Assembly: GCA_964486475.1 (NCBI GenBank)
Contig: CAZALZ010000003.1
Coordinates: 251-64,250, forward strand
Direction of reading: 5' to 3'
Length of the DNA: 64,000 bases
Source: an uncultured Gammaproteobacteria bacterium
GTDB lineage: Bacteria > Patescibacteriota > Patescibacteriia > Patescibacteriales > WJLG01
Within the stretch, counting starts at the first letter, position 1. The number at the start of each line of letters is the position of its first letter. The notes below the pieces were generated by a model. The model was not told the DNA's origin. It saw nothing but the letters and a program-made list of their open reading frames with translations, and ran no database searches. This document shows positions 3,838 through 44,634 of this stretch, piece after piece. A program made the translations under genes and the position numbers.

Positions 3838-5538
<1,701 letters not shown>

Positions 5539-5585: not shown

Positions 5586-5704
5586 AATTTAACCTTTTTT
5601 TGTTTGTGGAAATTTTTCAAAATACGGAGCTTGGAAAATTTGTCGCGAACCGCTCAAAGTGTTAAAATATAAAAGGAACTGCTTTAAGCAGTGAATTTTA
5701 TTAA

Positions 5705-7231: not shown

Positions 7232-7345
7232 TTTTTTTTGCAGTATGGTTTTGGCGGTATGTAGAACAATATAAACTTCGCGTTTGTTTGCGGATTAGTG
7301 TAAATTAGCGAATTAGCATTTTATTTATAAGATAATTAAATTTAA

Positions 7346-9181: not shown

Positions 9182-9197
9182 TTAATTAAAATTATCA

Positions 9198-10784: not shown

Positions 10785-10798
10785 AATTATTTTTAAAA

Positions 10799-11188
10799 AT
10801 GCCGTTGCGCAATAAAAAAAATTTTTTTTCCGGGCCATTATGGCTCACCCTTTTTCTGCTGGCTATTCTCGGCTGTTTGGCCGGGCCGCTTTCAAGTAAT
10901 TTTTTAAGAAAGCAAAAAGTTGACAGCGAAATTTTGGAGTTGCAAAAAGAAATAAGTCAGCTGGATAGCAGCAACAAGGACTTGGAAAAATTACTGGTTT
11001 ATTTAAAGTCCAATCAATTCGCCGAAGTTCAAGCCAGAGTTAATTTCGGTTTAAAAAAACCCGGAGAAGAAGTGGTGGTTATAAAGAGCGGCGAGAATTC
11101 AAAAGAAATTGAGGCGGCAGTGGCGGAGGAAACTGAAGCCCCGAATCCGGTTAGGTGGCTGAAGTATTTTTTGAAGATGAAGCAATAA
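10799..11188 (+). CDS. septum formation initiator family protein (FtsB/DivIC-like)
   Basis: Internal ATG of the 10667 ORF; the upstream part overlaps the GT2 gene. One TM helix, then a coiled coil (EILELQKEISQLDSSNKDLEKLLVYL), then NFGLKKPGEEVVVI. Confidence 0.7.
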   Translation: MPLRNKKNFFSGPLWLTLFLLAILGCLAGPLSSNFLRKQKVDSEILELQKEISQLDSSNKDLEKLLVYLKSNQFAEVQARVNFGLKKPGEEVVVIKSGENSKEIEAAVAEETEAPNPVRWLKYFLKMKQ

Positions 11189-11249
11189 ATTTATAAAAAT
11201 ATCGGCGCTTAAAAGGCGCGGTATTTTTCAGGAAAAGCATCAAATAAAA

Positions 11250-19137: not shown

Positions 19138-19608
19138 TCAGGCTAACATTTTTTTGTTTGCATAATTATCCAATAAATCCTCAAGTGTTTTCTCTCCACT
19201 GTCTTTTGTTGGATAAAAATACACTTCGTTATGTGTCTTGTAGCTGGGGTGTTTCCGGCTCAAATAAAACCGAACCGATGGGCCGTCTCCTTGCAGTATT
19301 TTCAACATTAAAATGTCCTCAACAAGGTCGTTGAGGTGATATTTAACGTGATCAATTTTTTCTTTGAATTCATTGTCCTCGCGAAGCCAGCGGTAGAAGG
19401 TATCACGACTTATTCCTGTCTGTTCGGAAACAAGGCTGACGCTTGAACCTCCAACCTTTTCAAACATCGCCACAAATTGCTCTTTAGCTTGTCGGGTGCT
19501 GTCACGCTCAACTTTCTGAACACAATCGCACACGGGGCCAACAGTGGCCCCACGCGTGGCTAACACGGGTGAAAGGTGCTCAATTTTGTAGGATTTGTCA
19601 GATTTCAT
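19138..19608 (-). CDS. HTH DNA-binding protein (terminase-small-subunit-like / phage-type HTH)
   Basis: 156 aa. TGISRDTFYRWLREDNEFKEKI, a helix-turn-helix signature common in phage TerS-like and regulatory proteins. Confidence 0.55.
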   Translation of the reverse strand: MKSDKSYKIEHLSPVLATRGATVGPVCDCVQKVERDSTRQAKEQFVAMFEKVGGSSVSLVSEQTGISRDTFYRWLREDNEFKEKIDHVKYHLNDLVEDILMLKILQGDGPSVRFYLSRKHPSYKTHNEVYFYPTKDSGEKTLEDLLDNYANKKMLA

Positions 19609-19659
19609 AGTGAGAATGGCTTATTTGCCTTAACTCTATTATGCCAAAAACTGCCATTT

Positions 19660-19688
19660 TTGACAACGCGATTTTGAAGGAGTAAAAT
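19660..19688 (+). promoter_or_regulatory. sigma70-type promoter of the HTH-mod-res operon
   Basis: TTGACA (19660-19665), 17-nt spacer, TAAAAT (19683-19688). Confidence 0.65.
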
Positions 19689-19720
19689 TAAATCACAAAA
19701 GCTAAAAGTTAATTATCGCT

Positions 19721-19912
19721 ATGGACACAAACATCGACAAACTTTTTACAATTGAGGAAGTGGCTAAAATTTTAAGGGTAAGTACGCGTTCCGTTACTCG
19801 CTATATTGAAACTGGAAAATTAAAGGCATCAAAAATCGGGGTATGGAGAATAAAGGAAGCCGATTTGAATGCGTTTTTGGAAGACACGAGTAATCAACAA
19901 AAGAAACAATAA
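19721..19912 (+). CDS. excisionase-family (MerR-like) HTH DNA-binding protein
   Basis: 63 aa. FTIEEVAKILRVSTRSVTRYIETGKLKASKIGVWRIKEADLNAFL. Confidence 0.85.
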   Translation: MDTNIDKLFTIEEVAKILRVSTRSVTRYIETGKLKASKIGVWRIKEADLNAFLEDTSNQQKKQ

Positions 19913-19916
19913 ATTT

Positions 19917-21686
19917 ATGGATAATAAAAGAAATTATAAAGGTTCGTTGCGACTTGATTGGATAAATAAAGACTTGTCGCTTTATTACGAGATCGACGAG
20001 AAAGAAAGCAAAGGAGTCCGTCCAGTCTGGGTACCTAAAAATGACATTCGTGTAGCCGAGCCACGTATTTTGAGGTTTGAGAAAAACCACGGTGATGCAA
20101 CAAGCGAGAATATGCTTATTAAGGGTGATAACCTTTTGGTTCTCAGGAGTTTGGTTGAGATGTTCAAAGGTAGACCCGAAAAAGACAAAATAAAATGTAT
20201 CTACATTGATCCTCCTTTTAATACTGGCAACGCTTTTTCAAGGTATGATGACAACTTACAACATTCTCAATGGTTAACAATGATGAGAGATCGTTTACAT
20301 TTATTGAGAAAATTAATGAGAAAAGATGGAGTAATTTTTGTTCACATAGACGATATAGAACAGGGTTATCTAAGAGTTTTAATGGATGAGACGTTTGGGC
20401 GTGAAAATTTTATATCACAGATTGCTTGGGAGAGGTCATCGATTGCCGGACTTGGTCAGGGTGGCAAAATGGTTGTTAATGTTACCGAGTATATCCTTGT
20501 TTATTCCAGAGAAAAAACCAGCCTAAAAATTAATGATGACTTTGAAGTTAAAAAAGTCTTTGAGTACGAAAAACTTAAGGGTTACAGTCAGGTGCTTGTT
20601 AGCGAAGGAAGCAAGAAACTGGTTAAGGAATTTCCATCAAAATCGAATAAAGAACCAGTAAAAATTTTTAAGCACGAAAATTATAAAATTGAGAGGATAC
20701 CCTTTAAGGAGTTAGAAGAAAGTAAAAAACAATTTAAGGATTTCTATAAAAATAATTTTGATAAAATTTTTCGAACATTTTTAGTTCAAAAAGAAAATAA
20801 ATTCCAGCACGAATTGATTGATCAAATGGATAGAGCCCTCTACTCAGTTGAATACACTCCAAGCCGAGGGAAAAACGTAAATGTTTTAACGACCAATTAT
20901 TATCACAAAAAAGAGCTGTGTGGATGGCTTTCGTCAGTAGCCAGTTACGAGAAAGACACTATCTATAAATTTGAAAAGCCAAGTGATTTCTGGACAAAAG
21001 AAGATGTGTCAAACGCCGCAAGAGGAGAAGGTGGTATAAAAGGCGAAGATAGAACAAGAAAGCCAGAAAAATTACTCAGCCAGATTATAGGGATGTCGAC
21101 AAAAAAGGACGACATTGTTTTGGATACTTTTGCGTTTAGTGGAACCACGGGTGCGGTGGCGCATAAAATGGGGCGACGCTGGTTAATGGTAGAAATGGGA
21201 CGACAAGCCGAGGAATTAGTTATTCCTCGTATGCAAAAAGTTATAAACGGAAGCGATCAAGCTGGGATAAGTAAAGATGTTAATTGGCAAGGTGGTGGTG
21301 GTTTCAAATACTACAAACTCGGCGAAAGTTTAATAAATGAACAGGATATGAATTGGATTTTGAAAGCCGAGGAAATGGCCGAGGCGGTCTTTTTACATTT
21401 TCAATACAAGCCAGAGGAAGCTGACTGGTTGAAAAAGGAAGGTATGTATTTAGGCAAACATCAATCGGCGCGTTATCATTTTGCACTTACCTTTGCTTCG
21501 CGTGATATAAAAACGTTAGATGAGGGGCTTTATGAGAAAATTGTTGCCGGCTTAGAGAAAGAGAAATTTAAGCATTTAACAATTTTTACAAATGTCGCCG
21601 TTGCGGTTCCCCCGGAGGCACTTGATGAGCGCGTACTTATTAAGAAAATTCCGGCCGCCATTCTAAGAGAATACAACTTATTATGA
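19917..21686 (+). CDS. mod: type III restriction-modification methyltransferase (Mod, beta-class N6A/N4C MTase)
   Basis: ATG at 19917, 4 nt after the HTH stop. Motif IV CIYIDPPFNTGN precedes motif I VLDTFAFSGTTG. Overlaps res by 4 nt. Confidence 0.88.
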   Translation: MDNKRNYKGSLRLDWINKDLSLYYEIDEKESKGVRPVWVPKNDIRVAEPRILRFEKNHGDATSENMLIKGDNLLVLRSLVEMFKGRPEKDKIKCIYIDPPFNTGNAFSRYDDNLQHSQWLTMMRDRLHLLRKLMRKDGVIFVHIDDIEQGYLRVLMDETFGRENFISQIAWERSSIAGLGQGGKMVVNVTEYILVYSREKTSLKINDDFEVKKVFEYEKLKGYSQVLVSEGSKKLVKEFPSKSNKEPVKIFKHENYKIERIPFKELEESKKQFKDFYKNNFDKIFRTFLVQKENKFQHELIDQMDRALYSVEYTPSRGKNVNVLTTNYYHKKELCGWLSSVASYEKDTIYKFEKPSDFWTKEDVSNAARGEGGIKGEDRTRKPEKLLSQIIGMSTKKDDIVLDTFAFSGTTGAVAHKMGRRWLMVEMGRQAEELVIPRMQKVINGSDQAGISKDVNWQGGGGFKYYKLGESLINEQDMNWILKAEEMAEAVFLHFQYKPEEADWLKKEGMYLGKHQSARYHFALTFASRDIKTLDEGLYEKIVAGLEKEKFKHLTIFTNVAVAVPPEALDERVLIKKIPAAILREYNLL

Positions 21687-24427
21687 AAAACAATAAACAA
21701 AAAACATTCTACGATTTAGTGAGTCAAGACCAGCAATATAAAATTGCGGTTGGCTCAGCTTCACCGAAGACAATCGATAATTTTGACAAGACTCAGCAAT
21801 TGCTTAAATTTCCATTACGCCCCTACCAAATGGAGGCAATGGGTGCATTTCAGCTTTTTGAAAAAGACCGTTTTGATAGTCGGAGTTTGAAAGCGAAAAC
21901 GATCCAAGAAAGCAAAGACGACGAGGGTAAATTGGTGCAGTGGAGCAAGGTTGGATTTGAGATGGCAACGGGGTCTGGCAAGACTTTGCTTATGGGTGCA
22001 ACGATTTTGGATTTGTGGCACAAAGGACACAAGGACTTTCTTATTTTAACACCAAATACTATTTTGTTTGACAAGACAATAGAAAATTTTACACCTCGCG
22101 CTGTTAAAAGTATTTTTGGCGATGGTTGGAATTTATCTTATAACTTGGTGACAGGAAACTCATACCGTGACAAAACCTGCAATTATGAAGACGAAAAAGA
22201 CATTTCCTTTTATGTGTTCAATATGCAGAAATTTTATGATAAAGGAACCTCGATCACGCAAAAAGATAGCGAAGATACAATGAAGGGTGTCCCTTATGTA
22301 AGGAGACCGCTTGAGGAGTCAGTCTGGCGAGATAAAAGCGGAAATCATACAATTTCTTTTGTAGAATTTTTGCGTGAACGACGTCCAGTTATTATTTCGG
22401 ACGAAGCACATCACTATCAGCAAAAGAAAACTACAGAAGCAATTTTTGAGTTCTTACCAAGTATTGTACTTGAGTTTACTGCCACCTCCATTGAAAAGGG
22501 TGACGGTGATGACGTTGGACAGAATAACCTTTATAAGTATCCAATGCAGAGGTATATCACTGAGGGATATGGTAAAAGGATTTTTGCCGTTGGCTGTGGT
22601 ACAAGCGATGAAAAAACAACGGATGAAGTAACGGATAGTGACAAGCAAAAGTTGATATGGGGTATGCTAATTCACCTACTGAAAGATGAAGCTCTTGCGG
22701 CAGTTCACGCCCCGGTTAAAAAATCAATGTTGCTTACAAAGGCGCGCTCAATAAAACACGCCGATCTCATTGATGTTTATTTGAAAAATTGGCCGGACGC
22801 TGTTTCTGGTGAGCTTGATGATGTTTTGGAACAAGTAAATCGAGAAGGTACTGATATCGCTAAAATAATAAGACAAAACATACCAAAAAGTAAGGCCGAG
22901 TTAATTAAAAAATTAAAGCGTGTTGCTAATTCCGTATTTACTATCCACAGCGAAAATAAGAGCGAAGAAGAAACTTGGACGGAGTATCAAACTCTTGATG
23001 ACAATAAATCGGAAATCGTAAATCAAGTTCGTGTATTTACCGAAGGTGTAGATTATGACAATTTTTATACTATCGTTGTGTTGGGAGACACGGTTGAAAA
23101 AGTTGGTTTAGCCGCCGCCCAGCTTATTGGACGAGGCCTGAGGCTTTACAAAGAAAAACGAGAGTTTGACATATTGGAGCACGACTTAAAAGAACAAAGC
23201 GAAATTTTGCATATTGTTTGCGAGCGTGGCCGTCGCTTTGATCAGATTGTGCAAGAAATAAGAGAAAAACTCGACTTGTCGCAAGCAAGTATTGAAATTC
23301 CAACCGAAGAAGAAGACCGCGACAACAAGGTTAATAAAAAAATCATTGACGATTACGAAATACCAATTTTACAAATAAAACCATTTGCCACTGGCAAAAG
23401 TTTTGAAGACGTACTTAAGGATAAAACATTGAGTATTGATGCTTTTTTGAGCGAGGTGTGTAGTGTTTTGAAAGGAGACAAAGTATTAAAGCCAGAAGTC
23501 ATAGCCGCCGTTGATTACGCAGAAATAACAAGAGCTGATATTGAATTACAAAAAGATAAACCGACTACTACTCGCCGAACAATAACGCTGTCAAAAGAAG
23601 ACATATCACGTTGGGCTTGGAATTTTGTTGAAGAGGTTGGACCGTTTATAGGCAATAATTCAATTGGTACAGTAAAAAATTTGATTGATAAAATTATAAA
23701 TGCTGGTATTCAGGTTGACACTGCTTACGCGATTGACTACAAGAAAGCACTCAAGGCATTAAAGAAAAGTATAATTGAATTTTATGGCAAAAAATCATTT
23801 GAGTTAATGTTTAATAGTCGATTCACTTTCAGAAAAAAGAACGTTAAGGATGTTTTTGTTGATGGCAAAGTAACCGTGCGAAAACGTGACGGCAAGGCAA
23901 TAAACCTTATTCCGTCGTATCAAGAAATGAGCTCACACCAACAACAAAAAGGTATTATTGTCGAGGGCTATCAGCACGCCATTAAGCCGTATGTAAAATT
24001 TGATAGTCCACCAGAGAAATTAGTTGCAGACGCGCTGGAGCATTTGTGTGCTATTGATAAAAAGAAAAAGAGTTTTTGGGTTAGAAACGAGCCAAGGACA
24101 GAGTATCCGGTTGAAGTAAAGCCGGCGCCATTTTACCCAGACTTCCTCGCATTCATTGATGGCAAATGGATAATCGTTGATGTAAAAGGCAAACACCTTG
24201 CCGAGGCAAAGCAAATTGATGATCGCAAAAAAGCATTAAAACTATTGGAAAAAGAAGGTGGCATCACCACTTTTTTCCTTGTTGATAAGGTAATGGAGAA
24301 AAAAGGATTTAGCGCGGCCACAATTTCCAGTGTAAAGGATTTTGAGGGTTTTGATGAATTGAGGCACGAGGATCTCGGACTTGAGGAGTTTACTAACGGC
24401 GCCGTTCCGAATTTGTTTGATAAATAA
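21683..24427 (+). CDS. res: type III restriction enzyme Res subunit (SF2 helicase + PD-(D/E)xK nuclease)
   Basis: 914 aa. Walker A MATGSGKT, DEAH box ISDEAHHY, C-terminal nuclease motif FYPDFLAF...IIVDVKGK. Confidence 0.9.
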   Translation: MKNNKQKTFYDLVSQDQQYKIAVGSASPKTIDNFDKTQQLLKFPLRPYQMEAMGAFQLFEKDRFDSRSLKAKTIQESKDDEGKLVQWSKVGFEMATGSGKTLLMGATILDLWHKGHKDFLILTPNTILFDKTIENFTPRAVKSIFGDGWNLSYNLVTGNSYRDKTCNYEDEKDISFYVFNMQKFYDKGTSITQKDSEDTMKGVPYVRRPLEESVWRDKSGNHTISFVEFLRERRPVIISDEAHHYQQKKTTEAIFEFLPSIVLEFTATSIEKGDGDDVGQNNLYKYPMQRYITEGYGKRIFAVGCGTSDEKTTDEVTDSDKQKLIWGMLIHLLKDEALAAVHAPVKKSMLLTKARSIKHADLIDVYLKNWPDAVSGELDDVLEQVNREGTDIAKIIRQNIPKSKAELIKKLKRVANSVFTIHSENKSEEETWTEYQTLDDNKSEIVNQVRVFTEGVDYDNFYTIVVLGDTVEKVGLAAAQLIGRGLRLYKEKREFDILEHDLKEQSEILHIVCERGRRFDQIVQEIREKLDLSQASIEIPTEEEDRDNKVNKKIIDDYEIPILQIKPFATGKSFEDVLKDKTLSIDAFLSEVCSVLKGDKVLKPEVIAAVDYAEITRADIELQKDKPTTTRRTITLSKEDISRWAWNFVEEVGPFIGNNSIGTVKNLIDKIINAGIQVDTAYAIDYKKALKALKKSIIEFYGKKSFELMFNSRFTFRKKNVKDVFVDGKVTVRKRDGKAINLIPSYQEMSSHQQQKGIIVEGYQHAIKPYVKFDSPPEKLVADALEHLCAIDKKKKSFWVRNEPRTEYPVEVKPAPFYPDFLAFIDGKWIIVDVKGKHLAEAKQIDDRKKALKLLEKEGGITTFFLVDKVMEKKGFSAATISSVKDFEGFDELRHEDLGLEEFTNGAVPNLFDK

Positions 24428-24431
24428 ACCT

Positions 24432-25175
24432 ATGAATTCATTTAAGGATATCGCCTATATAATTTTGAAAGAAGCTGGTAAATCACTTCACAGTAATGAA
24501 ATAACCAAGCTCGCGCTTAAGCGTGGCCTTGAAACTGCTGGGCAAACCCCTGAGCTGACAATGAAGGCAGTGCTTTTGAGGGACATAAATAATAAAGGCG
24601 AATTGTCGCAATTTAAGAAAACCGGACCAAGCCTTTTTGCTGTAAATGATAAAAAAGTGGAAATTGAGGAAGAGGCTAAGTCTGATCGGGTCATTGATGA
24701 GCTTGAGATTGAGGAAGAGAAAGAAGTTGAAGGCGGTTATATCGGCAAAGCCGGAGAGCACGCTGTCCTTTCAGAGTTGCTTTTCAGGGGCTATAACGCC
24801 GCGTTGATGTCTGTCGATGTTGGTGTGGATATAATGGCCAGCAAGAACAATGAGACGTTTAACATTCAGGTAAAAACGAGGAATATCAGCAAAAAGTATG
24901 ATGCTTTTCATTTTAATTTGAGGATCATCTCTTTTGAAAGGCACAATGCCGGCCGAACTTTTTACATTTTTATTCTGCGCGAAAACGGCAAGTTGGACTA
25001 TGTTATTTTACCGCTCCACGAAATTGAAAAATCAATCGAGGAGGAGTTTATTCACGTTGTCGGTAACGGAAAGCTCTACCGTATAACAATCAAAAAACGA
25101 GACGGTAAAATTTATTTAGGCCGAAAAGAAAATGACGTTTCCTACTACCTGAACAGGTGGGATGCAATAAAATAA
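24432..25175 (+). CDS. HARE-HTH domain protein fused to a PD-(D/E)xK-like nuclease domain
   Basis: 247 aa from the ATG at 24432. N-terminus FKDIAYIILKEAGKSLHSNEITKLALKRGL...TPELTMKAVLLRDI is HARE-HTH-like. C-terminus is GKAGEHAVLSELLFRGYNAALMSVDVGVDIMA...NIQVKT. Confidence 0.65.
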   Translation: MNSFKDIAYIILKEAGKSLHSNEITKLALKRGLETAGQTPELTMKAVLLRDINNKGELSQFKKTGPSLFAVNDKKVEIEEEAKSDRVIDELEIEEEKEVEGGYIGKAGEHAVLSELLFRGYNAALMSVDVGVDIMASKNNETFNIQVKTRNISKKYDAFHFNLRIISFERHNAGRTFYIFILRENGKLDYVILPLHEIEKSIEEEFIHVVGNGKLYRITIKKRDGKIYLGRKENDVSYYLNRWDAIK

Positions 25176-25177
25176 TT

Positions 25178-26665
25178 ATGGACTTATTTTTCTCTGACCA
25201 TTTTAAGGTAAAAAGAAACGATCTCGATAAATACGGAGCGTTTAACATTTCGTTAGTTTCTGACCTCCCTCTTTTTATTGATCCGTTTCTGCTTTTTAAT
25301 AGTAAGAAGAAAAAATACAAGGAGCTACACGAAAGCATTATCAAATACCTTGTCTTTCTTAAAGACAAATCAGCCTCTCAAACAATTGATTCCGGGGCAT
25401 TGAAGGCGTGGTATGTTTTTAAGGAAGTTGAGCAAAATTGGCTCGGCTTTTCTTTAGTTGGCAACAAAGGCAGTGCCCTCGGTATGGACTTTGGCCGAGC
25501 GCTGAATGAAAATTTATATAAACTCTTTCAGAATTTTGGCACTGAAAAGAAAAAGAAAATCGCAGGTGGTAGTCATTTGGAAAAACTTTGTTTAATACGA
25601 GATGGAGTTGGGCGCGACAACATAAGTGATTTTACGACAAATCTGATAAAGGAATTTTTACTTGAATATACACAAGCCTTTGCACAGAAACACATCGATG
25701 CAAATTTGAGAGACAAGTTTAGGATTCCCAAAACCCGTTTTAATTATTCAACAGAAACGTGGGAAGAAGCGGAGTTTGACCTGCCGAAATTTAATAATGA
25801 TTTCGTGCTTTTGACTCCAAAGGAATTACTGACAAAAGACGAAACTTGGATAAACAAGGCCGATCTGTATGAACATTTTGATCACATACCGAATGCAATC
25901 CCAGACGATCAACTACGTTCTCAAATTAATAACTATTTTTTGAGCCGAATTCCTCGAGACCCAAAGAAAAAGAAAGAGCCTACACAAAAGGAAAAGGCCA
26001 AGGCCGCTTTGGAAACCTTATACCAATACCCAGAATTGATTGATTACTATATCAAGCAAAAAGAGGAAACTGGCGAACAGGCCGAAAGCATAAGCAGTGA
26101 GAAAGTTTCGACCTCGGAAAACCTCTACGTAAACAATGTTAAGCAGTTTATACCAGAGTTAGAAAAAACTGAATTTTATGCCTCTGCTCCGAATAGTTTT
26201 GAGGAGGCAAAGAAAAAAATAGGCATTTTAAAGGAATTTATTGAAAACAATGATGGCTACAAGCTGTTTTATGTTGGCAAAGAAAAAGTAAAAAACGAGC
26301 ACGACTTACACCTACTTTTTGGCTTGGTTTGCCACCGATCAACAACTTTTGATGTAAATCGCGAACCCAACAATGGGCGCGGACCGGTTGATTTCAAAAT
26401 TTCAAAAGGGAGCGCCGATAAAACCTTGGTTGAGTTCAAACTGGCTGGAAATAAAAAATTGGAGCAAAACCTCAAAAAACAGGTTGAAATTTACGAAAAA
26501 GCCAACGGCACAAAGTTATCATTTAAGGTTATCGTGTATTTTTCAAAGGCCGAATATGAGAGGGTTGTCGAAATACTAAACCGGCTAAAATTGAACGGGA
26601 AAGAGAATGTTATCTTGATAGACGCCCGATTAGACAATAAGGTTTCAGCCTCTAATGTGAAGTAA
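25178..26665 (+). CDS. hypothetical protein with C-terminal RecB-like PD-(D/E)xK nuclease motifs
   Basis: 495 aa from the ATG at 25178. C-terminus GRGPVDFKIS...TLVEFKLA...KKQVEIYEKA (D, ExK, QxxxY). The N-terminal ~380 aa are unrecognised. Confidence 0.6.
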   Translation: MDLFFSDHFKVKRNDLDKYGAFNISLVSDLPLFIDPFLLFNSKKKKYKELHESIIKYLVFLKDKSASQTIDSGALKAWYVFKEVEQNWLGFSLVGNKGSALGMDFGRALNENLYKLFQNFGTEKKKKIAGGSHLEKLCLIRDGVGRDNISDFTTNLIKEFLLEYTQAFAQKHIDANLRDKFRIPKTRFNYSTETWEEAEFDLPKFNNDFVLLTPKELLTKDETWINKADLYEHFDHIPNAIPDDQLRSQINNYFLSRIPRDPKKKKEPTQKEKAKAALETLYQYPELIDYYIKQKEETGEQAESISSEKVSTSENLYVNNVKQFIPELEKTEFYASAPNSFEEAKKKIGILKEFIENNDGYKLFYVGKEKVKNEHDLHLLFGLVCHRSTTFDVNREPNNGRGPVDFKISKGSADKTLVEFKLAGNKKLEQNLKKQVEIYEKANGTKLSFKVIVYFSKAEYERVVEILNRLKLNGKENVILIDARLDNKVSASNVK

Positions 26666-27041
26666 ATTGACCCTGCGGATACTCCAAACAATAAGTTCGG
26701 ATGTCATCAATCAGGCGGAGCCAAACACAACGAAGCAAACTCTTTTTCCCCGCCCAAAGAAAGTTTTCAGCGAACCTTTGAAATTATTCTGCCAAATTTA
26801 ATCCACAAAGTGAGAACTGGCCTGCCAAAGGCAGGACGAAAAAAGAAATTTTTAAAAAGGCCACATTTAGGGGGGGCAACCCCCCCCAAAAAAAGAGGGC
26901 GGGCAAAAATTCCTTTTGGTTGGTTTTCCATGAAATACTGGGAGAGGGTCGTCATGGATGAACTAAGAAGAAGGGTCGAGAGATAGAAACATTAGCAATC
27001 AGAAAAAATTAATTAAATAATTGGTATAAACGATTACGTTT

Positions 27042-27398
27042 ATGAAAGGTGAGGCGACATCAAAAAATAACTCAAAAACATACTTGCAGATACTAACATC
27101 CGCAATTTTGCTGTTTGTTTTTTATAAATTAGGCTTCTCATTCTATTTTATTATCGGAATGGGAATTTTTATTTTATTGCTCGTTTTATTGAAGGGTAAA
27201 CTCTTTAACAAGTTGGACGCCTTTTTGACCGCTAAATTGCCGTTTCTTTCCAAGCAGAGTCCTCGCGTCAAAAAAATAATTATAGTAATCACTTTTGTCC
27301 TCGCATATATCATATTGAAACAAATTATCTTTTTTATTTTGTCGCAATTCGGGATAGACGTTCAGAAGATGATATTGGATAGCGTTAATAACCATTAA
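27042..27398 (+). CDS. small membrane protein (118 aa)
   Basis: Three predicted hydrophobic helices; no motif. Confidence 0.5.
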   Translation: MKGEATSKNNSKTYLQILTSAILLFVFYKLGFSFYFIIGMGIFILLLVLLKGKLFNKLDAFLTAKLPFLSKQSPRVKKIIIVITFVLAYIILKQIIFFILSQFGIDVQKMILDSVNNH

Positions 27399-27409
27399 AT
27401 ATAAAAAAT

Positions 27410-28087
27410 ATGGCTGACAATAAAAAAACAAAAGTAGTGATGCAGAACACGATCAGCTTGGACGGTTCATTTATCAACTTTGAAACGTCTCAGGAAGTGA
27501 TGGGTTTGCATTATCAGATCGTGGGCAGTTTCGGCAAGGCTCTTTATCTATTCGGTTCAAATACTGCCAAGGTCGCGATAGAAATGTTTGGCGGATTAAC
27601 ACCAGAAACAGAGAATGATTTTAAGAAGCCGTAAAAAAGCGAAGACTTGTCATGTTGGGTTGTCGTAGATTCGGAAGCCGTTCTTAAGGGGAAATTACAT
27701 TTTTACCGCCGATCGGAATATTGTCGGGACATAATCGTTTTGGTCTCAGAAAGTACTGATAAGAGTTATTTGGATTATTTAAAGGAAAGAGAATATAATT
27801 TTGTGGTTGCCGGAGAGAAACAGGTAGACTTAAAGAAATCTTTTGACATTTTATCCGACAGATATGAGATGGGCACCATTTTAGTGGATTCGGGGCGCGG
27901 CCTGACCAATACCATGCTTAATCAGGGATTGGTGGACGAAATTAGCTTGCTTGTTTTGCCTGTTATCGTGGGGGAAAAATCAGAAAATTTATTCAGTAAC
28001 GTTACAAAACAGTTAAAACTAACCGGACTTAAAGAAAGGACTTTTCCCGGAGGATACGTTCATCTGCACTACAAGATTGATAAATAA
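27410..28087 (+). pseudogene. RibD_C/dihydrofolate-reductase-like reductase interrupted by one in-frame TAA
   Basis: ORFs 27410..27634 and 27647..28087 are in the same frame, separated only by TAA at 27632-27634. Read through, the sequence is ...DFKKP*KSEDLSCWVVVDS.... The N-part is VVMQNTISLDGS and the C-part is ILVDSGRGLTNTMLNQGLVDEISLLVLPVIVG. Confidence 0.65.
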
Positions 28088-28152
28088 AATTGATAAAGAA
28101 ATAATATATACCAAAGGAAATCGCTAAAAAAATTAAGAAATAAATTAATTAT

Positions 28153-28545
28153 ATGGATTGTATTTTTTGTAAAATCATCGCTGGTGAAATTCCGGCTACT
28201 AAAATTTACGAAGACGACAAATGCCTGGCTTTTTTGGACATCAAACCGGTTAATCCCGGGCATGTTTTGTTAATACCGAAAAAGCATTTCCCGACCATGG
28301 CGGAAACTCCGGATGGCTTAACAGCTTACATTTATGTAAAAGCTAAAGAATTGATGCCAAAGATAAAAATAGCCATGAAGGCGGATTTTGTCGTCTTATC
28401 AGTTGTCGGGACTGATGTTCCGCACTTTCATATTCACTTGATTCCGCGCTATTTTAGCGACGGGTTGGCCGGTTTTTGGCCGGCAAAAAAATATCAAGAA
28501 GGGGAAATGGCCGCCGTTGCCGAGAAGATTAGAGCCGAAATTTAA
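28153..28545 (+). CDS. HIT family (histidine triad) protein
   Basis: 130 aa. CIFCKII, and HFHIHLIPR (HxHxHxx motif). Confidence 0.9.
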   Translation: MDCIFCKIIAGEIPATKIYEDDKCLAFLDIKPVNPGHVLLIPKKHFPTMAETPDGLTAYIYVKAKELMPKIKIAMKADFVVLSVVGTDVPHFHIHLIPRYFSDGLAGFWPAKKYQEGEMAAVAEKIRAEI

Positions 28546-28634
28546 ACTTCCGGCTTGTTTTTAAAAGAAAAGTGCTTTTAGCCGCGGTTTTTTTATGGTA
28601 TAATAAAACCATTAATATTTAATATTATTTATTT

Positions 28635-29057
28635 ATGTTAAAAAACGTTTTTATAATTGAGGATGATATTAATATCGCTAAAGGTTTGCAAGCCAACCTT
28701 AATTCTTTGGGTTTTGAGGCTGAAACGAATCCTGGCGGAGAAACCGAGGCGGAAGATTTGGTTATGGAAATTAGAAAGGCCGACGCCGACATTGTTATTC
28801 TTGATCTAATCTTGCCGAAGATAGACGGTTTTGAAATAATCAAAGCCATCAGGGCTGATGAAGAAATCAGCGATATTTATATTTTTGTTTTCACTGATGT
28901 GTCTGACGAGGATTCCCGCGCTCGTGGCTTGTCAGTCGGCGCCAATCAATATTTTTTAAAGAATGATTTTTCCGTCTCAGAATTTGCCGAGAAAGTAAAA
29001 AAGATTATGGAAAATCGCGAGGCGATGGAAGAAGCCAGTAATACTTATCAAATCTAA
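28635..29057 (+). CDS. single-domain response regulator (receiver only)
   Basis: 140 aa. IIEDD acidic pocket, phospho-acceptor context IVILDLILPKIDGFEI. No output domain. Confidence 0.85.
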   Translation: MLKNVFIIEDDINIAKGLQANLNSLGFEAETNPGGETEAEDLVMEIRKADADIVILDLILPKIDGFEIIKAIRADEEISDIYIFVFTDVSDEDSRARGLSVGANQYFLKNDFSVSEFAEKVKKIMENREAMEEASNTYQI

Positions 29058-29094
29058 AGTTCCCGTTTTATTATCAAAATTTTCTAAATAAAAA

Positions 29095-31008
29095 ATGAAA
29101 AAATTTTTTTCTAAGGGAAGAAAAATCAAAATCGGTTTTTTAGCCGCCGGAATTTTAATAGTTTTGGCCGCGGTTTTTTTATCGTTCAACAAAAAAGAAG
29201 TTTTAAATTATGAAACAGCCAAAGTTGAAAAGCACGATTTGGTTCAAACTGTTAAGGAAGTCGGCGCGGTAAAATCAGCCGAAGAAATAAAATTAAGCTT
29301 CCCGTTTTCCGGGAAATTAGCTAATAAATTCGTGAATCTCGGCGATGTTATTTTAAAAGATCAAGTAATCGCCGAATTGGATTATTCGGCCGTCCTAATT
29401 GAAAAAACCAATGCCGAATCAAATTTGTCGGCCGCTCGAGCCGGCCTAAACAAGCTGTTGGCCGGAGCTTCTAAAAATGAGATTTCGGTGGTTGAGGCTC
29501 AAGTTTCTCAAGCGCAAAAAGCTTATGACGCGGCCGTGGATAATTTAAATAAGATTAATAAAACCGTGGCTGAAGAAATTCGCCAGGCGGAAAAAAATCT
29601 CGAAGATTTGGTTGACGGCGGCGACAGCACAATAACCACTTACGAAGCTTCCTTGACATCCGCTAAAACAGGTTTGCAAAATGCCCGAGCGACATATCAG
29701 AAAGTTATTGATAATGCGGTGGAGATAGGACTTGTTGATGCCGGTGCTAAACTCTCGGTTGGAAATACTGCGTTGGATAATGTCGGCAAGATGCTTTCCG
29801 ATGATGATATTAAAGATACTTTAAGCGCTAAAAATAAAAATTATTTGAATAATGTAAGGTCGGGGCACACTGAAGCCGAAGAACTTTATTTAACGGCGGC
29901 CGATTCATTGAACAACGCTCTTGTTGATGAAAAAAAAGCAATAGTTGAAAAGGCCCTGGACGATATTTTAGCTTTTTTAAAAAAAACCTCCTATGTTTTA
30001 GACAATTCTTATGTTGCTTTGGAATACAGTACAATGGAACAAACATCTCTGGATTATTATAAAAATATCATCAGTACGCAAATTACTTATAACAATTCGG
30101 CTATTTCAATTATTCAGGTCGATCAGCAGTCTTTAGATAGCGCTTATTTGTCTTATGATACGAATATTTCGACTGCTCAAAATTCTTTAAATCAAGCGCA
30201 AGCTTCTTTTGACAACGCCTTGCTTTCAGCGCAGAATAATTTGTCTAGCGTCCGCTTAAGCGGAGAATCGCGCTTAGCCTCGGCTGATTCTGGTGTTAAA
30301 AATTCCAAAGAAGCTTTAGAGGTTGCTCGCCGCCAATTAAGTCAATTGAAATCTCCGGCGCGGAGCGAAGATGTTGCTTTGTCTCAAGCTAATGTCGACC
30401 AGGCGCAGGCCGCTTTGGATTTGGTTAATAGAAAGATCGACGATAGTTTATTGAAATCACCGATAAACGGCAAGTTAGTCCGCTCGGTTTATGAAATCGG
30501 CGAGCAAATTTCGGCTGGTCAAACCGCTTTCGCCGTTTTGAAAGAAAATAGTTTTGAAATAGAAGTTGATATTTCCGAATCCGATATTGCGAAAATAGAA
30601 GTTGGAAATCAGGCGGAAATCACCTTGGACGCTTTTGGCGATGAGCGGAAAATAAAAGGGAGCGTTATATTTATAGAACCGGCGGAAACCGTAATTCAAG
30701 AAGTAGTTTATTACAAGGTAAAAGTGAGTTTTTCAGAGGATAATGAGAGTAAGACAATGTCGCAAGTAAAATCCGGGATGACTGCTAATGTTAAAATTTA
30801 TACTGGCAGCCGCAATAATGTCTTAGCAGTTCCTGAAAGAGCCATTATAGAAAAATCCAGTAAAAAAATCGTCCGCATTTTGCGGAGCGGTTCTTTGGTT
30901 GAGGCAGTGGTGGAGACCGGCTTGCGCGGTGACGACGGCTTGATTGAATTGATTTCTGGGGCTAAAGAAGGCGATGAAATAGTCGTTTATATTAAGAATT
31001 CCAAATAA
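29095..31008 (+). CDS. HlyD/efflux periplasmic adaptor family protein with a very long coiled coil
   Basis: 637 aa. N-terminal TM, lipoyl-like hairpin halves (VKEVGAV..., SPINGKLV) separated by ~350 aa of coiled coil, C-terminal beta-barrel (VLAVPERAII). Confidence 0.75.
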   Translation: MKKFFSKGRKIKIGFLAAGILIVLAAVFLSFNKKEVLNYETAKVEKHDLVQTVKEVGAVKSAEEIKLSFPFSGKLANKFVNLGDVILKDQVIAELDYSAVLIEKTNAESNLSAARAGLNKLLAGASKNEISVVEAQVSQAQKAYDAAVDNLNKINKTVAEEIRQAEKNLEDLVDGGDSTITTYEASLTSAKTGLQNARATYQKVIDNAVEIGLVDAGAKLSVGNTALDNVGKMLSDDDIKDTLSAKNKNYLNNVRSGHTEAEELYLTAADSLNNALVDEKKAIVEKALDDILAFLKKTSYVLDNSYVALEYSTMEQTSLDYYKNIISTQITYNNSAISIIQVDQQSLDSAYLSYDTNISTAQNSLNQAQASFDNALLSAQNNLSSVRLSGESRLASADSGVKNSKEALEVARRQLSQLKSPARSEDVALSQANVDQAQAALDLVNRKIDDSLLKSPINGKLVRSVYEIGEQISAGQTAFAVLKENSFEIEVDISESDIAKIEVGNQAEITLDAFGDERKIKGSVIFIEPAETVIQEVVYYKVKVSFSEDNESKTMSQVKSGMTANVKIYTGSRNNVLAVPERAIIEKSSKKIVRILRSGSLVEAVVETGLRGDDGLIELISGAKEGDEIVVYIKNSK

Positions 31009-31078
31009 ATAGAGCATTTCAATTTTATAAAATTCCGGTTTAGCGCCGGTTTTTTGATTATAATATTTTTGAAAAACG

Positions 31079-31107
31079 CTGACACCTGCGCTTTTTTGTG
31101 ATATAAT
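31079..31107 (+). promoter_or_regulatory. extended -10 promoter directly abutting the mltG start codon
   Basis: CTGACA (31079-31084), 17-nt spacer, TGaTATAAT (31099-31107). The ATG is at 31116 and there is no SD. Confidence 0.5.
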
Positions 31108-31115
31108 TTACAAAG

Positions 31116-32168
31116 ATGATGAAAAATATTTTTAAAATAATTATTTTATTTGCGATTGCCGCTGTTTTCTGGCTTTTTTTCGCTTACGATTCGGCCAAAA
31201 ACAAGCCCTTGGATGAAAATGGCAAAACTAAAATATTCACAATTGAAACAGGGCAATCGGTCAAGGACGTTTCTTCGGCTTTAAAAAAAGAAGAATTGAT
31301 TAAATCTGATTTTTTCTTTCGTTTTTTGGCCGGCAAAAACAATGATGATAAAAATATCAAGGCTGGAGTTTACGAATTAAGCGCGGCTATGTCAGCTAAA
31401 GAAATTTTGGAAATAATTTCTTTGGGAAAAAGTCTGAATGAGGAACAAGAAGTGACTGTTATTCCCGGATGGACTCGGCGAAATTTGGCGGCTAAAGTTG
31501 AAGAGTGGGGGTTGGCGTCCGACGCCGATTTTTATTCTTTAGCCGGAGAACCGCTTAAAGAATGTTTAAAGAATTCCCCGAAAATAAAAGATTATTCCGA
31601 GTCGTTTGATTTTTTATTCGACAAGCCGGATTGCCGCGGATTGGAAGGGTATCTTTTCCCCGACACTTATCGTTTGTATAAAAATGCTTCCGCTGACGAT
31701 TTAATTGTTAAAATGTTAGAAAATTTTGACAATAAGCTTGCGCCTCAAATGCGCGATGACATAGAAAAACAAGACAAGACTATTTATGAAATAATCACTA
31801 TGGCCTCTATTATAGAGAAAGAAGTTCGGAGTGAAAAAGATATGAAGATTGTATCTGGTATTTTTTGGAATCGTCTGAAAAAAAACCAAGGGCTGGAGTC
31901 TTGCGCTACATTGGCCTATATTCTCGGCGTCAACAAGGCGATTTATTCTTTGGAAGACACTCAGATAGATTCTCCTTATAATACTTATCGCTATAAAGGG
32001 TTGCCCCCCGGTCCGATTTCCAATCCGGGGTTGGCGGCGATTGCCGCCGCAATTTATCCGGCCGAAACCAATTATTTTTATTTTCTTTCCCGATCTGATA
32101 ACGGTGAAACGGTTTTTTCCGAGACTTATGAAGAGCATTTGCGCAATAAAGAAAAATATCTCAAATAA
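31116..32168 (+). CDS. mltG: endolytic murein transglycosylase MltG (YceG family)
   Basis: 350 aa. N-terminal TM, ASIIEKE, YNTYRYKGLPPGPISNPG. Confidence 0.9.
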   Translation: MMKNIFKIIILFAIAAVFWLFFAYDSAKNKPLDENGKTKIFTIETGQSVKDVSSALKKEELIKSDFFFRFLAGKNNDDKNIKAGVYELSAAMSAKEILEIISLGKSLNEEQEVTVIPGWTRRNLAAKVEEWGLASDADFYSLAGEPLKECLKNSPKIKDYSESFDFLFDKPDCRGLEGYLFPDTYRLYKNASADDLIVKMLENFDNKLAPQMRDDIEKQDKTIYEIITMASIIEKEVRSEKDMKIVSGIFWNRLKKNQGLESCATLAYILGVNKAIYSLEDTQIDSPYNTYRYKGLPPGPISNPGLAAIAAAIYPAETNYFYFLSRSDNGETVFSETYEEHLRNKEKYLK

Positions 32169-32178
32169 ATTTGTCTTT

Positions 32179-34488
32179 ATGAAAATCAGAGAAAATTTCA
32201 ATCAAACAGGCAGCGGTTATTTGAAGTTAATTTTATTTTTTACCGGCCTTGTTCTTGTGATTTTTTTTATTTTTTTTGCCATTCAATTCATCCGGAAACA
32301 AAAGTCCTTAACTGAAGAAATAAAAAACGGCCAAGAGGAAAATATTTCCGCCGAAGCGGAAAACAAAGAGTCTTTTTTGCCGCCGGCCGGAGAAGGCGAG
32401 GGGGTTAATGCTTCTTCAACTGAACAATCCAAAGAAACAGCTGAAAAATATTATCCGGGAGATTTTTACGAAAATCCGCCATTGCCGGATAATTTTTCCG
32501 ATTCTTATTCTTTGCCGCTGAATGTCAAAACCGATGTTGTCAATTATTATGACTTTTCCAGAAAAATAGACATAGATAAGGTTTTGCCAGATTTAAATTC
32601 CCAGGGGTTTGCTATTATCGACAGCCCTTTTTCTTCCGCCGAAAATTTCTACGACACTTATGCCGCTTTAAACGACCGCCAAATTCCGCCGCTGATTACG
32701 GTCGATTTTCTAACCTATTATTATCAAAATATAATAAAATCGGTTTATAAGAAGATTGAAAGCGCAGTTTTTTATGATTCGCTCTGGGAGACGAATAAAA
32801 AACTTTATGAAACGGCCAGGATTAGATATGAAAAAAAACTTTCCGAAGCCGGTTTATCCAATGATATTTCCCTGGAAGGGGCTCGCCGAGAATTGTCTTT
32901 TTTGGCGGTTTCTCTTTATCTTTTACAGCCGGCTAAAGATCAGATTGGCGGCGCTTCGGCTTTGGATGGCAATGGAAAATTCTCCGAATCTGAGGCGGAA
33001 AATTTTTCTTTTTCTTTACCGGATTATTTAGAAGATGATGTCTTTTCTGAAATAGCTTTGATTCGCGGCGCCGATCAATCGGTTAAATCCTCGGTTTTTT
33101 TATATGAAAAAGATTATTCGGTTTTTGATGTACCGGAAGAATATCAAGCCAACGCTCGTTTAAAAAATTTCTATTTGGCATCGCTTTGGCTGAATTCCGT
33201 TTGGCCGCTTTACCCCAAGAGCGATAACTGTCCCGATTGTCTTTTGGACAAAGAAGATTGGCGCGTCAACTTTTATGCCGCGCTGCTTTTGTCCGACGAT
33301 TTGGCCTCTTCGCAAGATTTGAAAAATAGCTGGGCGCAGATTTATAAAATTAAATCCTTTTTCGCTGGTTTGCGAAGCGATTTTAATTATTTGCATTATC
33401 GTGAAGCCTTGGATAAAGTTTTTGGTTCTGGCGTTAGAGCGGAAGATGGCTTGTCCGTGGAAAATATTGATAATTATCTGGTTTCTTTGTCCGCGGAGAT
33501 GGGGGAAGCGGAGTTTCCATTGGTTGAAGGAGGCCGAAACAAGGATTTGCCGGCGGAAAAACCTTATATCGGTTTGAGAATGTTGGCGGAGGCGCAATGG
33601 CCGAGTGTTTATATTTTTAGCCGGCTAACGGCCACTTCAACCGGCAATTATTTGGGGAAGCCGGAAGCGGCGGTGAATATTGCTACAGCTTGCACCGAGA
33701 AAAAAATAACCACTCGTTGCGCGGTTTCGGGTTTTGATATGATTAATTTTGCCGTAGACGGCGGTTACTCCAATTCTTATATATCCTCAAACACTGATTA
33801 TGAATTTTATTCGGAAAGAATGGATTCTTTAAAGAAAGAAATTTCTGAATTTACTCCTGTTTCCTGGCATAATAATTTTTTCTGGGCGACATTAGATGTT
33901 ATTAGAAAGAATTATGCCGCGCCGGTCAGCTCCCTGCCTGCTTTCGCCGCTTCAGACGCTTTTCGCCAAAAAGATCTTTATTGGGCTTTATCCTCTTGGG
34001 TTAATTTTCAGCTGCCGCCAGACAATTTTGTTTTAAACGAAAATACCTCTTCTCGGTTAAACAGCGACAGTAAAGAAAATAAACTGATTTCTTACGCTTA
34101 TATAGAACCTAACCAAACGATAGTTTCAGAATTATCGGCTAACGCCGGAATGCTTTTTGACTATTTAACAGCCTTAAAAATCGGCGATCAAGCCGGAGCG
34201 GCTCTATATGATTTGAAAAATTTGAAAGATAATCTTAGTTCCGCCGCGATGATTGTAAAAAAAGAAGCGGCTGGCGAAGATTTATCAGAAGATGATTATA
34301 AATTTATTTCTAACCTTTATCAGGGTTTTTCGGTTGAAAAAAAAGGAGATAAAATTTTAACAATTTACCAGGGTCGAAAGATGGAAGAGAACTTAGAGGG
34401 TGTTAAAATATTGCTCGTTATTTATTCTAAGAAAGGGGGAAAAATAATCGCCGCCGGCCCCATCTTTAATTATAAAGAAAATCGATGA
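32179..34488 (+). CDS. large membrane-anchored extracytoplasmic protein of unknown function
   Basis: 769 aa from the ATG at 32179; the upstream part of the ORF overlaps mltG. One N-terminal TM. 4-nt overlap with the downstream L,D-transpeptidase gene. Confidence 0.65.
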   Translation: MKIRENFNQTGSGYLKLILFFTGLVLVIFFIFFAIQFIRKQKSLTEEIKNGQEENISAEAENKESFLPPAGEGEGVNASSTEQSKETAEKYYPGDFYENPPLPDNFSDSYSLPLNVKTDVVNYYDFSRKIDIDKVLPDLNSQGFAIIDSPFSSAENFYDTYAALNDRQIPPLITVDFLTYYYQNIIKSVYKKIESAVFYDSLWETNKKLYETARIRYEKKLSEAGLSNDISLEGARRELSFLAVSLYLLQPAKDQIGGASALDGNGKFSESEAENFSFSLPDYLEDDVFSEIALIRGADQSVKSSVFLYEKDYSVFDVPEEYQANARLKNFYLASLWLNSVWPLYPKSDNCPDCLLDKEDWRVNFYAALLLSDDLASSQDLKNSWAQIYKIKSFFAGLRSDFNYLHYREALDKVFGSGVRAEDGLSVENIDNYLVSLSAEMGEAEFPLVEGGRNKDLPAEKPYIGLRMLAEAQWPSVYIFSRLTATSTGNYLGKPEAAVNIATACTEKKITTRCAVSGFDMINFAVDGGYSNSYISSNTDYEFYSERMDSLKKEISEFTPVSWHNNFFWATLDVIRKNYAAPVSSLPAFAASDAFRQKDLYWALSSWVNFQLPPDNFVLNENTSSRLNSDSKENKLISYAYIEPNQTIVSELSANAGMLFDYLTALKIGDQAGAALYDLKNLKDNLSSAAMIVKKEAAGEDLSEDDYKFISNLYQGFSVEKKGDKILTIYQGRKMEENLEGVKILLVIYSKKGGKIIAAGPIFNYKENR

Positions 34489-43986: not shown

Positions 43987-44021
43987 TAATTATAGAATTA
44001 ATTATTCTAAAAAAATTAATT

Positions 44022-44627: not shown

Positions 44628-44634
44628 ATAATTT

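Follow-up and report, generated by a model that had tools for sequence, protein, structure and literature searches.

What do two additional nuclease-motif genes do at the end of an operon for a restriction-modification (R-M) system that is complete without them? The question is raised by a 64,000-nt stretch of DNA (the window; contig CAZALZ010000003.1, positions 251 to 64,250) from an uncultured, Paceibacterota-like candidate-phyla-radiation bacterium, in which type III mod and res genes are followed by two tightly spaced genes, called here gene 1 and gene 2. For a type III system Mod and Res suffice, and further subunits are unneeded. A first-pass annotation, made from the sequence alone, had placed both genes outside the canonical enzyme and proposed that they cooperate as a pair riding on the R-M operon. 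The former proposal held, given that the mod/res pair is complete and that both genes persist where the R-M cassette is replaced; the latter did not. Our analysis instead favors, with a probability of roughly 0.65, a reading in which each gene is a single-gene nuclease module of its own, carried by a mobile defence island, and gene 2 is a stand-alone sensor-effector defence protein.

The layout after res, with gaps of 4 nt and 2 nt, was confirmed from the map of open reading frames (ORFs) and from the raw sequence:

19917..21686, + strand: type III mod, adenine/N4-class DNA methyltransferase (PF01555, 1.5e-41; PADLOC MTase_III, 4.7e-102)
21683..24427, + strand: type III res, helicase domain (PF04851, ResIII, 3.7e-23; PADLOC REase_III); ends with TAA at 24425-24427, then the 4 bases ACCT
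24432-25175, + strand: gene 1, 247 aa; ATG at 24432, stop TAA at 25173-25175, then TT
25178-26665, + strand: gene 2, 495 aa; ATG at 25178, stop at 26663-26665

Both genes are conserved nuclease genes in a defence context, as had been supposed. In the arrangement that we propose, the island would consist of a conserved frame with two cargo slots, the first, between an HTH_17 gene and gene 1, taking an exchangeable R-M cassette (type III here), and the second, after gene 1, taking an exchangeable defence gene (gene 2 here). Loci used for comparison are numbered L081, L084 and so on.

Architecture of the gene 2 protein

The 495-aa product of gene 2 begins MDLFFSDHF...GAFNISLVSDLPLFIDPFLLF and contains the motifs PVDF, VEFK and QVEIY. 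From the translation, the family matches and an AlphaFold2 model (pLDDT 78.9, pTM 0.81) it can be divided into three parts:

25178..25882, + strand: N-terminal core, DUF8370 type (aa 1-235)
25883..26293, + strand: helical middle region (aa ~236-372; model helices 244-357, block-mean pLDDT ~73-93)
26294..26665, + strand: RecB-type PD-(D/E)xK nuclease (aa 373-495; E396, D405, E419-x-K421, Q435-xxx-Y439)

The RecB-type motif set read at first pass in the C-terminus is borne out by its close relatives, in that E396, D405, E419, K421, Q435 and Y439 are invariant across 68 sequences of 60-78% identity, a conservation that appears far beyond what chance matches would give. Residues 374-482 of the model form an alpha-beta-beta-beta-alpha-beta nuclease core, and the motif residues fall on the expected elements, namely strand 2, strand 3 and the following helix. 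In the N-terminal core, D29, D35, H51, E83, N96, G98, H133, E135, D147 and D151 are invariant in nearly all representatives that align there, and this Asp/His/Glu constellation suggests a metal or ligand site.

Foldseek comparison of the model with the PDB and with viral predicted structures returned nothing at E <= 1e-3; the weak matches are confined to the nuclease domain, where the top ones are nucleases, and the N-terminal ~370 residues resemble none of these solved or viral predicted structures. No STAND or P-loop NTPase was matched by Pfam, NCBIfam or PADLOC, nor was any such fold matched, and neither SAVED, SLOG nor another known sensor domain was detected. PADLOC did match its PDC-M36A model to aa 21-234 at 1.7e-22 (model positions 22-225 of 457).

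Family spread and effector exchange

The Pfam families PF28123 (DUF8370) and PF28130 (DUF8371) are precomputed on P0001, a protein 99% identical to gene 2, and on all 120 homologues listed, and it is by way of these relatives, not of a scan of the window protein, that we assign both families to gene 2. An exact look-up of the gene 2 sequence in an assembly index gave no match, and in the literature collection searched we found no paper on either family. A word-indexed search returned more than 6,600 homologues, there are 2,325 representative clusters at 50% identity (E <= 1e-3), and a collection with one genome per species gave 510 confirmed hits. Relatives occur in candidate-phyla-radiation lineages, Acidobacteriota, Chloroflexota, Bacillota, Actinomycetota, Pseudomonadota, Bacteroidota and other phyla, on plasmids as well as in genomes, annotated merely as 'hypothetical protein'.

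At 50% identity or less, the relatives keep the N-terminal module and vary the C-terminus. The nuclease is replaced by a TIR domain in five and by CHAT in one, and further relatives combine a nuclease-like domain with TIR/SEFIR, CHAT, SIR2, caspase plus EAD7, EAD7 alone or a PNP_UDP nucleosidase. The D...ExK triad is incomplete in 8 of the 9 variants that carry a nuclease-like region and an added effector domain, and the invariant residues of the N-terminal core are kept in the effector-swap variants too. According to Kaur et al. (2020, PMC7159879), EAD7 serves bacterial conflict systems as an adaptor through which effectors are recruited.

The neighborhoods of 80 gene 2 loci were surveyed in the one-genome-per-species collection. 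Type I HsdM is found in 12 of them, HsdS in 11 and HsdR in about 12, and in at least 17 of the 80 an R-M component lies no more than five ORFs away; further neighbors are serine recombinases, SNF2 helicases, ResIII, PLD, DpnII and SLATT proteins. The directly upstream genes are varied (ResIII 6, HsdS 3, resolvase 3, then HsdR, PLD, SNF2, DpnII, SLATT and others), with no fixed partner across the 80 loci. A PADLOC scan of 79 upstream neighbors was uninformative, being dominated by redundant type I specificity models.

Two other settings of the family were seen. In L130-L133 a 74%-identical homologue starts 5 nt after a 1526-aa SF1 helicase (AAA_11/AAA_12 plus Zn_ribbon_Top1) that matches PADLOC PDC-S37, MkoA/MkoC and Hhe and is preceded by an HTH_3 gene; this set lies on another serine-recombinase island, beside tRNA-Asn in L130. 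On a Paenarthrobacter plasmid (L138; NZ_CP094490.1, 1197-8572) the family has another R-M-like host operon, annotated as DNA methyltransferase, DEAD/DEAH helicase and GIY-YIG nuclease, with an overlapping gene 2 homologue at its end.

A constant core joined to swappable cell-killing effectors, the defence-island context, and a place in a slot that holds PD-Lambda-5-like genes in sibling islands (see below) together argue that gene 2 is a sensor-effector immune protein, and the stand-alone defence role that had been one of the suggestions at first pass is consistent with this evidence. In such a one-protein system (DUF8370 plus DUF8371), the N-terminal core would bind or process the trigger, the helical middle would transmit or couple the signal or oligomerise, and the RecB-type nuclease would be the effector, degrading DNA of the invader or, by abortive infection, of the cell. 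We put at even odds the further proposal that DUF8370 is an undescribed immune sensor or enzymatic core, with its D-D-H-E-N-G-H-E-D-D set and no solved relative, that would gate swappable effectors: RecB-type nuclease, TIR, CHAT, SIR2, caspase, nucleosidase and EAD7-recruited partners.

Given that gene 2 lies on a mobile island, it was reasonable to consider that it serves the island itself, in maintenance or addiction or in excision, transfer or replication, and not anti-phage defence. Homologues are indeed present on conjugative plasmids and beside recombinases or transposases, and a PHROG family matches gene 2 over its full length. On the other hand, a tblastn search of 50,697 phage genomes gave no match to gene 2 despite that PHROG match, no fixed link joins its relatives to any mobility gene, and sibling islands with the same recombinase frame do without gene 2. 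Moreover, the TIR, SIR2, CHAT, caspase, EAD7 and nucleosidase domains of the family are typical of immune and conflict systems (PMC7159879). We consider service to the island unlikely. A transposase or a repair gene was rejected as an identity for gene 2 on its patchy distribution, the lack of a fixed mobility link and the immune-type effector swaps.

Gene 1 and its restriction-modification neighbors

The reading of gene 1 as a HARE-HTH domain joined to a PD-(D/E)xK-like core was confirmed; the motifs GEHAV, VDVGVD and IQVKT are all found and are conserved in homologues. Its domains are:

aa 3-71: HARE-HTH (Pfam PF05066; E 3.1e-10, 40.7 bits against a cut-off of 25.9 bits)
aa ~79-104: disordered acidic linker
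E109, D129/D133, Q146-x-K148: Hjc/I-Ssp6803I-like nuclease

Across 47 homologues D129, D133 and Q146 never vary, and conservation is at least 90% at E109, H110 and K148. The nuclease domain of the model resembles I-Ssp6803I (Foldseek against the PDB, E 1.7e-5) and archaeal Hjc resolvases (to 1e-3), with probability 1.0, and it also resembles the SPARDA nuclease domains. The Pfam model of the I-Ssp6803I family, PDDEXK_5, was weak on gene 1 and below threshold (17.4 against 26.1 bits); PF11645 is precomputed on some homologues. PADLOC gave no match for gene 1, and sequence searches of the PDB with both proteins and with family profiles gave no meaningful match, hits to a designed knot protein and to HP0242 (E 7e-4 to 4e-3, aa 192-250) being treated as spurious. 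The structural and PADLOC comparisons proposed at first pass thus ended differently for the two proteins: the fold of gene 1 was matched, and gene 1 is of a described kind, and the N-terminal core of gene 2 was left unmatched but for the half-length hit to PDC-M36A.

Relative to the orthologue in L084, 74 codons of gene 1 differ synonymously and 2 non-synonymously. The gene is thus under very strong purifying selection. Like gene 2, it is an intact, conserved nuclease gene. We also considered a controller (C) protein, an identity that is ruled out by the conserved nuclease core and the 3' position in the operon.

The relatives of gene 1 (51-99% identical) are the last gene after varied R-M operons, most of them complete, with gaps mostly of 1-30 nt. 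The operons that precede them include:

L111: D12 methylase, a 416-aa protein and N6_N4 methylase
L117: N6_N4 methylase, two unknown proteins and D12 methylase
L128: D12 methylase, AlwI endonuclease and N6_N4 methylase
L084: methylase and a MutH-like gene

In L127 the upstream methylase and MutH-like genes are on the other strand, and near the relative in L123 no R-M gene was recognised. For the wider HARE-HTH-nuclease family, 39 upstream neighbors at 21 loci gave 13 matches to adenine/N4-class methylase families (N6_N4 5, D12 4, N6_Mtase 3, EcoRI methylase 1), the remaining ones being to HsdS, ResIII, AlwI, Tsp45I, MutH and GmrSD; no C5 methylase is among the 25 families listed for these neighbors.

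HARE-HTH/endonuclease fusions are described in PMC4738411 as restriction enzymes of N6A-modifying R-M systems, and what HARE-HTH reads is unsettled according to PMC11037411. The remark made at first pass that such fusions are known from restriction contexts agrees with the former source and with the methylase neighbors here, and gene 1 belongs to this described kind, a HARE-HTH with a restriction-fold nuclease beside adenine methylases. Going beyond the published picture, gene 1 accompanies R-M systems that have a nuclease of their own, and it stays nearly constant while the R-M type changes.

The published description makes it reasonable to ask whether gene 1 is a conventional, or a second, restriction endonuclease cognate to the neighboring methylase, and at one locus (L083) a gene 1 relative does face two methylase genes with no other nuclease identified in the four flanking genes. 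However, orthologues of 70-99% identity lie beside methylases of differing classes and beside systems with their own nuclease, whether AlwI, MutH-like or type III Res, which in the window bears a C-terminal PD...DxK motif (YPDF...VDVKGK, read from the translation). One fixed specificity cannot suit all of these, unless a short site such as GATC were shared. The near-constancy of gene 1 across R-M types, beside systems that already have a nuclease, thus argues against a cognate restriction enzyme, which we think improbable, and for a generic role.

In that generic role gene 1 would be an autonomous second-line nuclease, working independently of whichever sequence the neighboring R-M system recognises, its HARE-HTH domain reading the modification state of DNA or a structural feature. 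A more specific, secondary reading is that of a generic methylation-state-reading back-up nuclease for any adenine-methylase R-M system. A type IV enzyme combines a reader domain with a nuclease, has no cognate methylase and cuts modified DNA only. Gene 1 has a reader-nuclease fusion of this sort, yet methylase genes are consistently adjacent to it. Many of its close relatives adjoin GATC-type systems, namely MutH-like genes, AlwI (GGATC) and D12 plus N6_N4 pairs that resemble the DpnII cassette. In the host flanks of the window (1-15916 and 26718-64000) GATC is strongly depleted, at 0.54 of expectation by a maximal-order Markov estimate, and TCGA (0.46) and CTAG (0.32) are low as well; scarcity of GATC is in keeping with lasting pressure on the lineage from restriction systems that cut this site. 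From the GATC-type neighbors and the GATC scarcity we infer a hint, and only a hint, that gene 1 may read adenine-methylation state.

The first ~150 nt of gene 1 (24423-24568) are 74-78% identical in DNA to otherwise different HARE-HTH genes (L086:3132-3278, L084:20576-20724 and L107-L110). The HARE-HTH gene of L086 directly follows a res 81% identical in protein to that of the window, and at several loci the match covers just the first 21-72 residues. Such a pattern points to shuffling of the domain, or to a recombination junction, at the 5' end of gene 1.

Are the two genes a pair?

The proposal that gene 1, as for example a modification reader, and gene 2, as an executioner nuclease, form a two-component module appended to the type III system was not unreasonable. 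The two lie 2 nt apart in one operon, and their adjacency is kept in L134-L136. At L081, too, the gene that starts 1 nt after a gene 1 orthologue encodes a DUF8370-type protein, a very divergent one with a PDC-M36A match at 1e-49.

The wider survey is at odds with it. None of the 80 gene 2 loci has a gene 1 relative within 10 kb, and most gene 1 relatives, including those in L082-L085, L111, L117, L123, L127 and L128, have no DUF8370 neighbor. What follows them is instead:

L082 and L084: PD-Lambda-5_A-like gene
L128: ThsB-TIR-like gene
L118: MazE/NERD
L085: DUF2726-like gene

Tight spacing is moreover general for all neighbors in such operons, unrelated ones included. The co-occurrence survey that the first-pass annotation had suggested therefore found the two families largely scattered independently of each other, and they are independent families.

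Comparison with L134 adds a boundary between the two genes. Gene 1 differs from its counterpart there at 74 of 744 nt (~10%) and gene 2 at only 27 of 1488 nt (1.8%), and the change is abrupt:

25100..25180: recombination breakpoint at the gene 1/gene 2 junction; mismatches to L134 fall from ~10 to ~1-2 per 100 nt near 25135

The switch lies about 40 nt before the gene 1 stop. Given that gene 2 is far less diverged from L134 than gene 1 is, gene 2 has a separate, more recent history and behaves as a cassette of its own. We regard a two-component module as having little chance of being right.

Several observations also weigh against two separate modules with gene 2 as a sensor-effector protein. 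Given the protein in L081, the gene 1 and gene 2 families may have a loose affinity for each other. The loops of the gene 2 model are of low confidence exactly at several of the invariant N-core residues. The evidence for the gene 2 nuclease domain consists of motifs and topology, the Pfam PDDEXK_9 match being sub-threshold (14.6 against 25.5 bits) and the best Foldseek matches to the PDB (PspGI, Can2, Card1 and Cdn1) having E values of ~0.09-0.14. No defence-system model covers gene 2 over its full length, PADLOC matching its N-terminal half to an untested candidate, and NCBIfam matched neither gene 1 nor gene 2. ORF calling in the neighborhood survey was crude, taking the longest non-overlapping ORFs, and for neither family did we come across experimental work on a member.

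The island and its two slots

The whole defence operon lies on an integrative island at a tRNA gene:

15845..15918, + strand: tRNA-Gln (anticodon ttg; ARAGORN), whose 3' end is the island integration site
15917..26717: integrative island, 10.8 kb, with the whole defence operon (from comparison with L139)
15886..17619, - strand: large serine recombinase, 577 aa, the island integrase (Pfam Resolvase, 3.8e-18)
18414..19608, - strand: two island-frame genes, for a 238-aa protein without family match and a 156-aa HTH protein
19660..19688, + strand: promoter-like site TTGACA-17-TAAAAT upstream of the operon, 11/12 consensus positions
19721..19912, + strand: HTH_17/excisionase-like gene, 63 aa, first in the operon (phrog_66, 'excisionase and transcriptional regulator', 4.5e-12)
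26685..26724: right end of the island, 40 nt, 100% identical in L084 (blastn)

The boundaries were set from L139, a metagenomic contig that is 100% identical to 15326-15916 and 99.8% identical to 26718-32523 of the window, identity stopping at 15916 and resuming at 26718. Between these flanks L139 holds a different 7.9-kb serine-recombinase island (L139:592-8477), whose cargo comprises a REP_ORF2-G2P-like gene, a methylase plus MutH-like R-M system and a PD-Lambda-5_A-like gene with a D12 methylase, and in which there is neither a HARE-HTH nor a DUF8370 gene. Genomes with 99.8-100% identical flanks thus carry two different islands at one tRNA-Gln site.

Homology to the islands of L084 and L134 begins at 15893/15894, at the tRNA-Gln 3' end, and the 40-nt stretch shared with L084 at the right end is probably part of the attachment site. 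No convincing direct repeats flank the island, as expected for a serine recombinase. Recombinase and Zn_ribbon_recom matches in the 577-aa protein are weaker than that to Resolvase and fall below the Pfam cut-offs; its gene is ~90% identical in DNA in L084 and L134. The two genes at 18414..19608 have only weak HTH matches (Pfam, PHROGs), and both are present in L134/L135.

The operon comprises five genes, HTH_17, mod, res, gene 1 and gene 2; the Pfam HTH_17 match was recorded on the L134 orthologue of the first. The promoter-like site ahead of it is a consensus match only, in a region where the total of such sites is not above shuffled expectation. In the ORF list mod is longer and starts at 19869, overlapping the HTH_17 gene in a different frame (19869-19916). 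In L084 and L134 the same 17 codons that lie upstream of 19917 (MRFWK.RVINKR.NKFM) stand ahead of unrelated methylase genes, so that they are conserved flank and not mod coding sequence, and the true start of mod is probably the ATG at 19917.

L134/L135 match the window at 15893-19928 (89.6%) and at 24420-26723 (95.5%). Between these stretches, where homology to L134 ends at 19928 and the swappable cassette of the window occupies 19929-24419, mod-res is replaced in L134/L135 by a cassette of N6_N4 methylase and AlwI, followed by gene 1 and gene 2. With L084 the window has in common the recombinase region, the HTH_17/promoter region, gene 1 (89% identical in nucleotides, 99% in amino acids) and the 40-nt end; slot 1 of L084 holds a methylase plus MutH-like pair, and its slot 2 a PD-Lambda-5_A-like gene and a D12 methylase. 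Three types of R-M system are therefore found at gene 1, type III in the window, AlwI-type in L134/L135 and methylase plus MutH-like in L084, and the slot after gene 1 holds PD-Lambda-5_A-like, PDC-M36A-like or ThsB-TIR-like genes in sibling islands. What varies is the R-M cassette, bounded by two conserved genes, HTH_17 and gene 1, so that the picture of a module riding on the R-M operon is reversed.

This constancy, together with the best fold match of gene 1, to the PD-(D/E)xK homing endonuclease I-Ssp6803I, and the DNA similarity of its first ~150 nt to other HARE-HTH genes, could also be explained if gene 1 were a selfish homing-endonuclease-like gene, or a recombination anchor promoting R-M cassette exchange, and not a defence gene, an explanation that we doubt strongly, given that very strong purifying selection over the whole protein and its consistent place after methylases suggest a cellular function, that conserved flanks alone suffice for exchange by homologous recombination, and that Hjc resolvases match gene 1 about equally well.

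Two features of the window lie outside the island. Just beyond its right end an intergenic G7-CAA-C8 hairpin followed by an A-run (26873-26893) was seen, absent from the output of the terminator scan. The G+C content at 44000-54000 is 0.32-0.35, against 0.38-0.42 elsewhere, with a change in the sign of GC skew at ~48-52 kb, and this may be another acquired region.

Significance

Gene 2 is the more valuable part of the locus. It stands for a large multi-phylum family annotated as hypothetical or DUF, with a core unlike known sensors, and it shows hallmarks that have repeatedly been predictive of immune systems: a defence island, a swap-slot shared with a validated system and interchangeable effectors. 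If our reading is correct, DUF8370 would be a new, widespread single-gene defence family that extends from candidate-phyla-radiation bacteria to Bacillus, Streptomyces and Neisseria, and a new sensing principle for bacterial immunity could come from it; homologues exist in cultivable Bacillus, Paenibacillus, Halomonas and Neisseria. For candidate-phyla-radiation bacteria the island offers a clear natural case of defence genes exchanged as modules, with one conserved frame that takes three R-M cassettes and several second-slot genes, and with two islands competing for one tRNA site. Gene 1 raises the question of why an extra HARE-HTH nuclease is so often found in complete adenine-methylase R-M operons.

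Comparison with known systems

The closest relatives of gene 1 are the HARE-HTH/restriction-fold fusions (Aravind & Iyer 2012, as cited in PMC4738411 and PMC11037411), which have the same domain order and the same N6A/N4-methylase linkage; in the literature searched no biochemically tested member was found. Gene 1 differs from the published fusions in joining R-M systems that already encode a nuclease and in remaining 70-99% identical as the R-M type changes. The fold of its nuclease domain is like that of I-Ssp6803I and Hjc (PDB 2ost, 4tkd, 2wcz and 1gef), from which it departs in an identity of 15-20%, the extra HARE-HTH domain, QxK in place of ExK and the R-M operon context.

For gene 2, the nearest candidate is PDC-M36, an untested three-gene PADLOC candidate from a 'guilt-by-embedding' survey, embedded in R-M, BREX and DISARM systems, whose cassette is given as FAM_01399>>FAM_00303>>FAM_00303 (Payne et al. 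2024, bioRxiv 10.1101/2024.01.29.577857). In the literature collection searched PDC-M36 is mentioned in a supplementary table only, and no paper on it was found. Gene 2 shares with it the N-core match and the theme of embedding in R-M systems, but the FAM_00303 partners are absent: mod, res and gene 1 give no PDC-M36 hit, and no further island gene follows gene 2. The pairing of a constant module with swappable effectors is also a property of Avs and other NLR-like proteins, Thoeris, CBASS effectors and EAD-coupled systems (PMC7159879). Gene 2 is set apart from these by the lack of a detected STAND/P-loop NTPase, SAVED or SLOG domain and by an N-terminal core unmatched in solved structures.

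The relation of gene 2 to PD-Lambda-5 is one of position, PD-Lambda-5_A-like genes by PADLOC occupying the slot after gene 1 in L084 and L082 and being present in the L139 island as well, and in sequence the two are unrelated. PD-Lambda-5 was reportedly validated in an E. coli functional screen by Vassallo and colleagues in 2022. Slot 1, finally, resembles the DpnI/DpnII locus of Streptococcus pneumoniae, where cassette exchange was reportedly described by Lacks and colleagues in 1986, in that a single locus with conserved flanks accommodates one R-M cassette or another. It differs in that the locus here is on a mobile serine-recombinase island, and in that its right flank is itself a nuclease gene.

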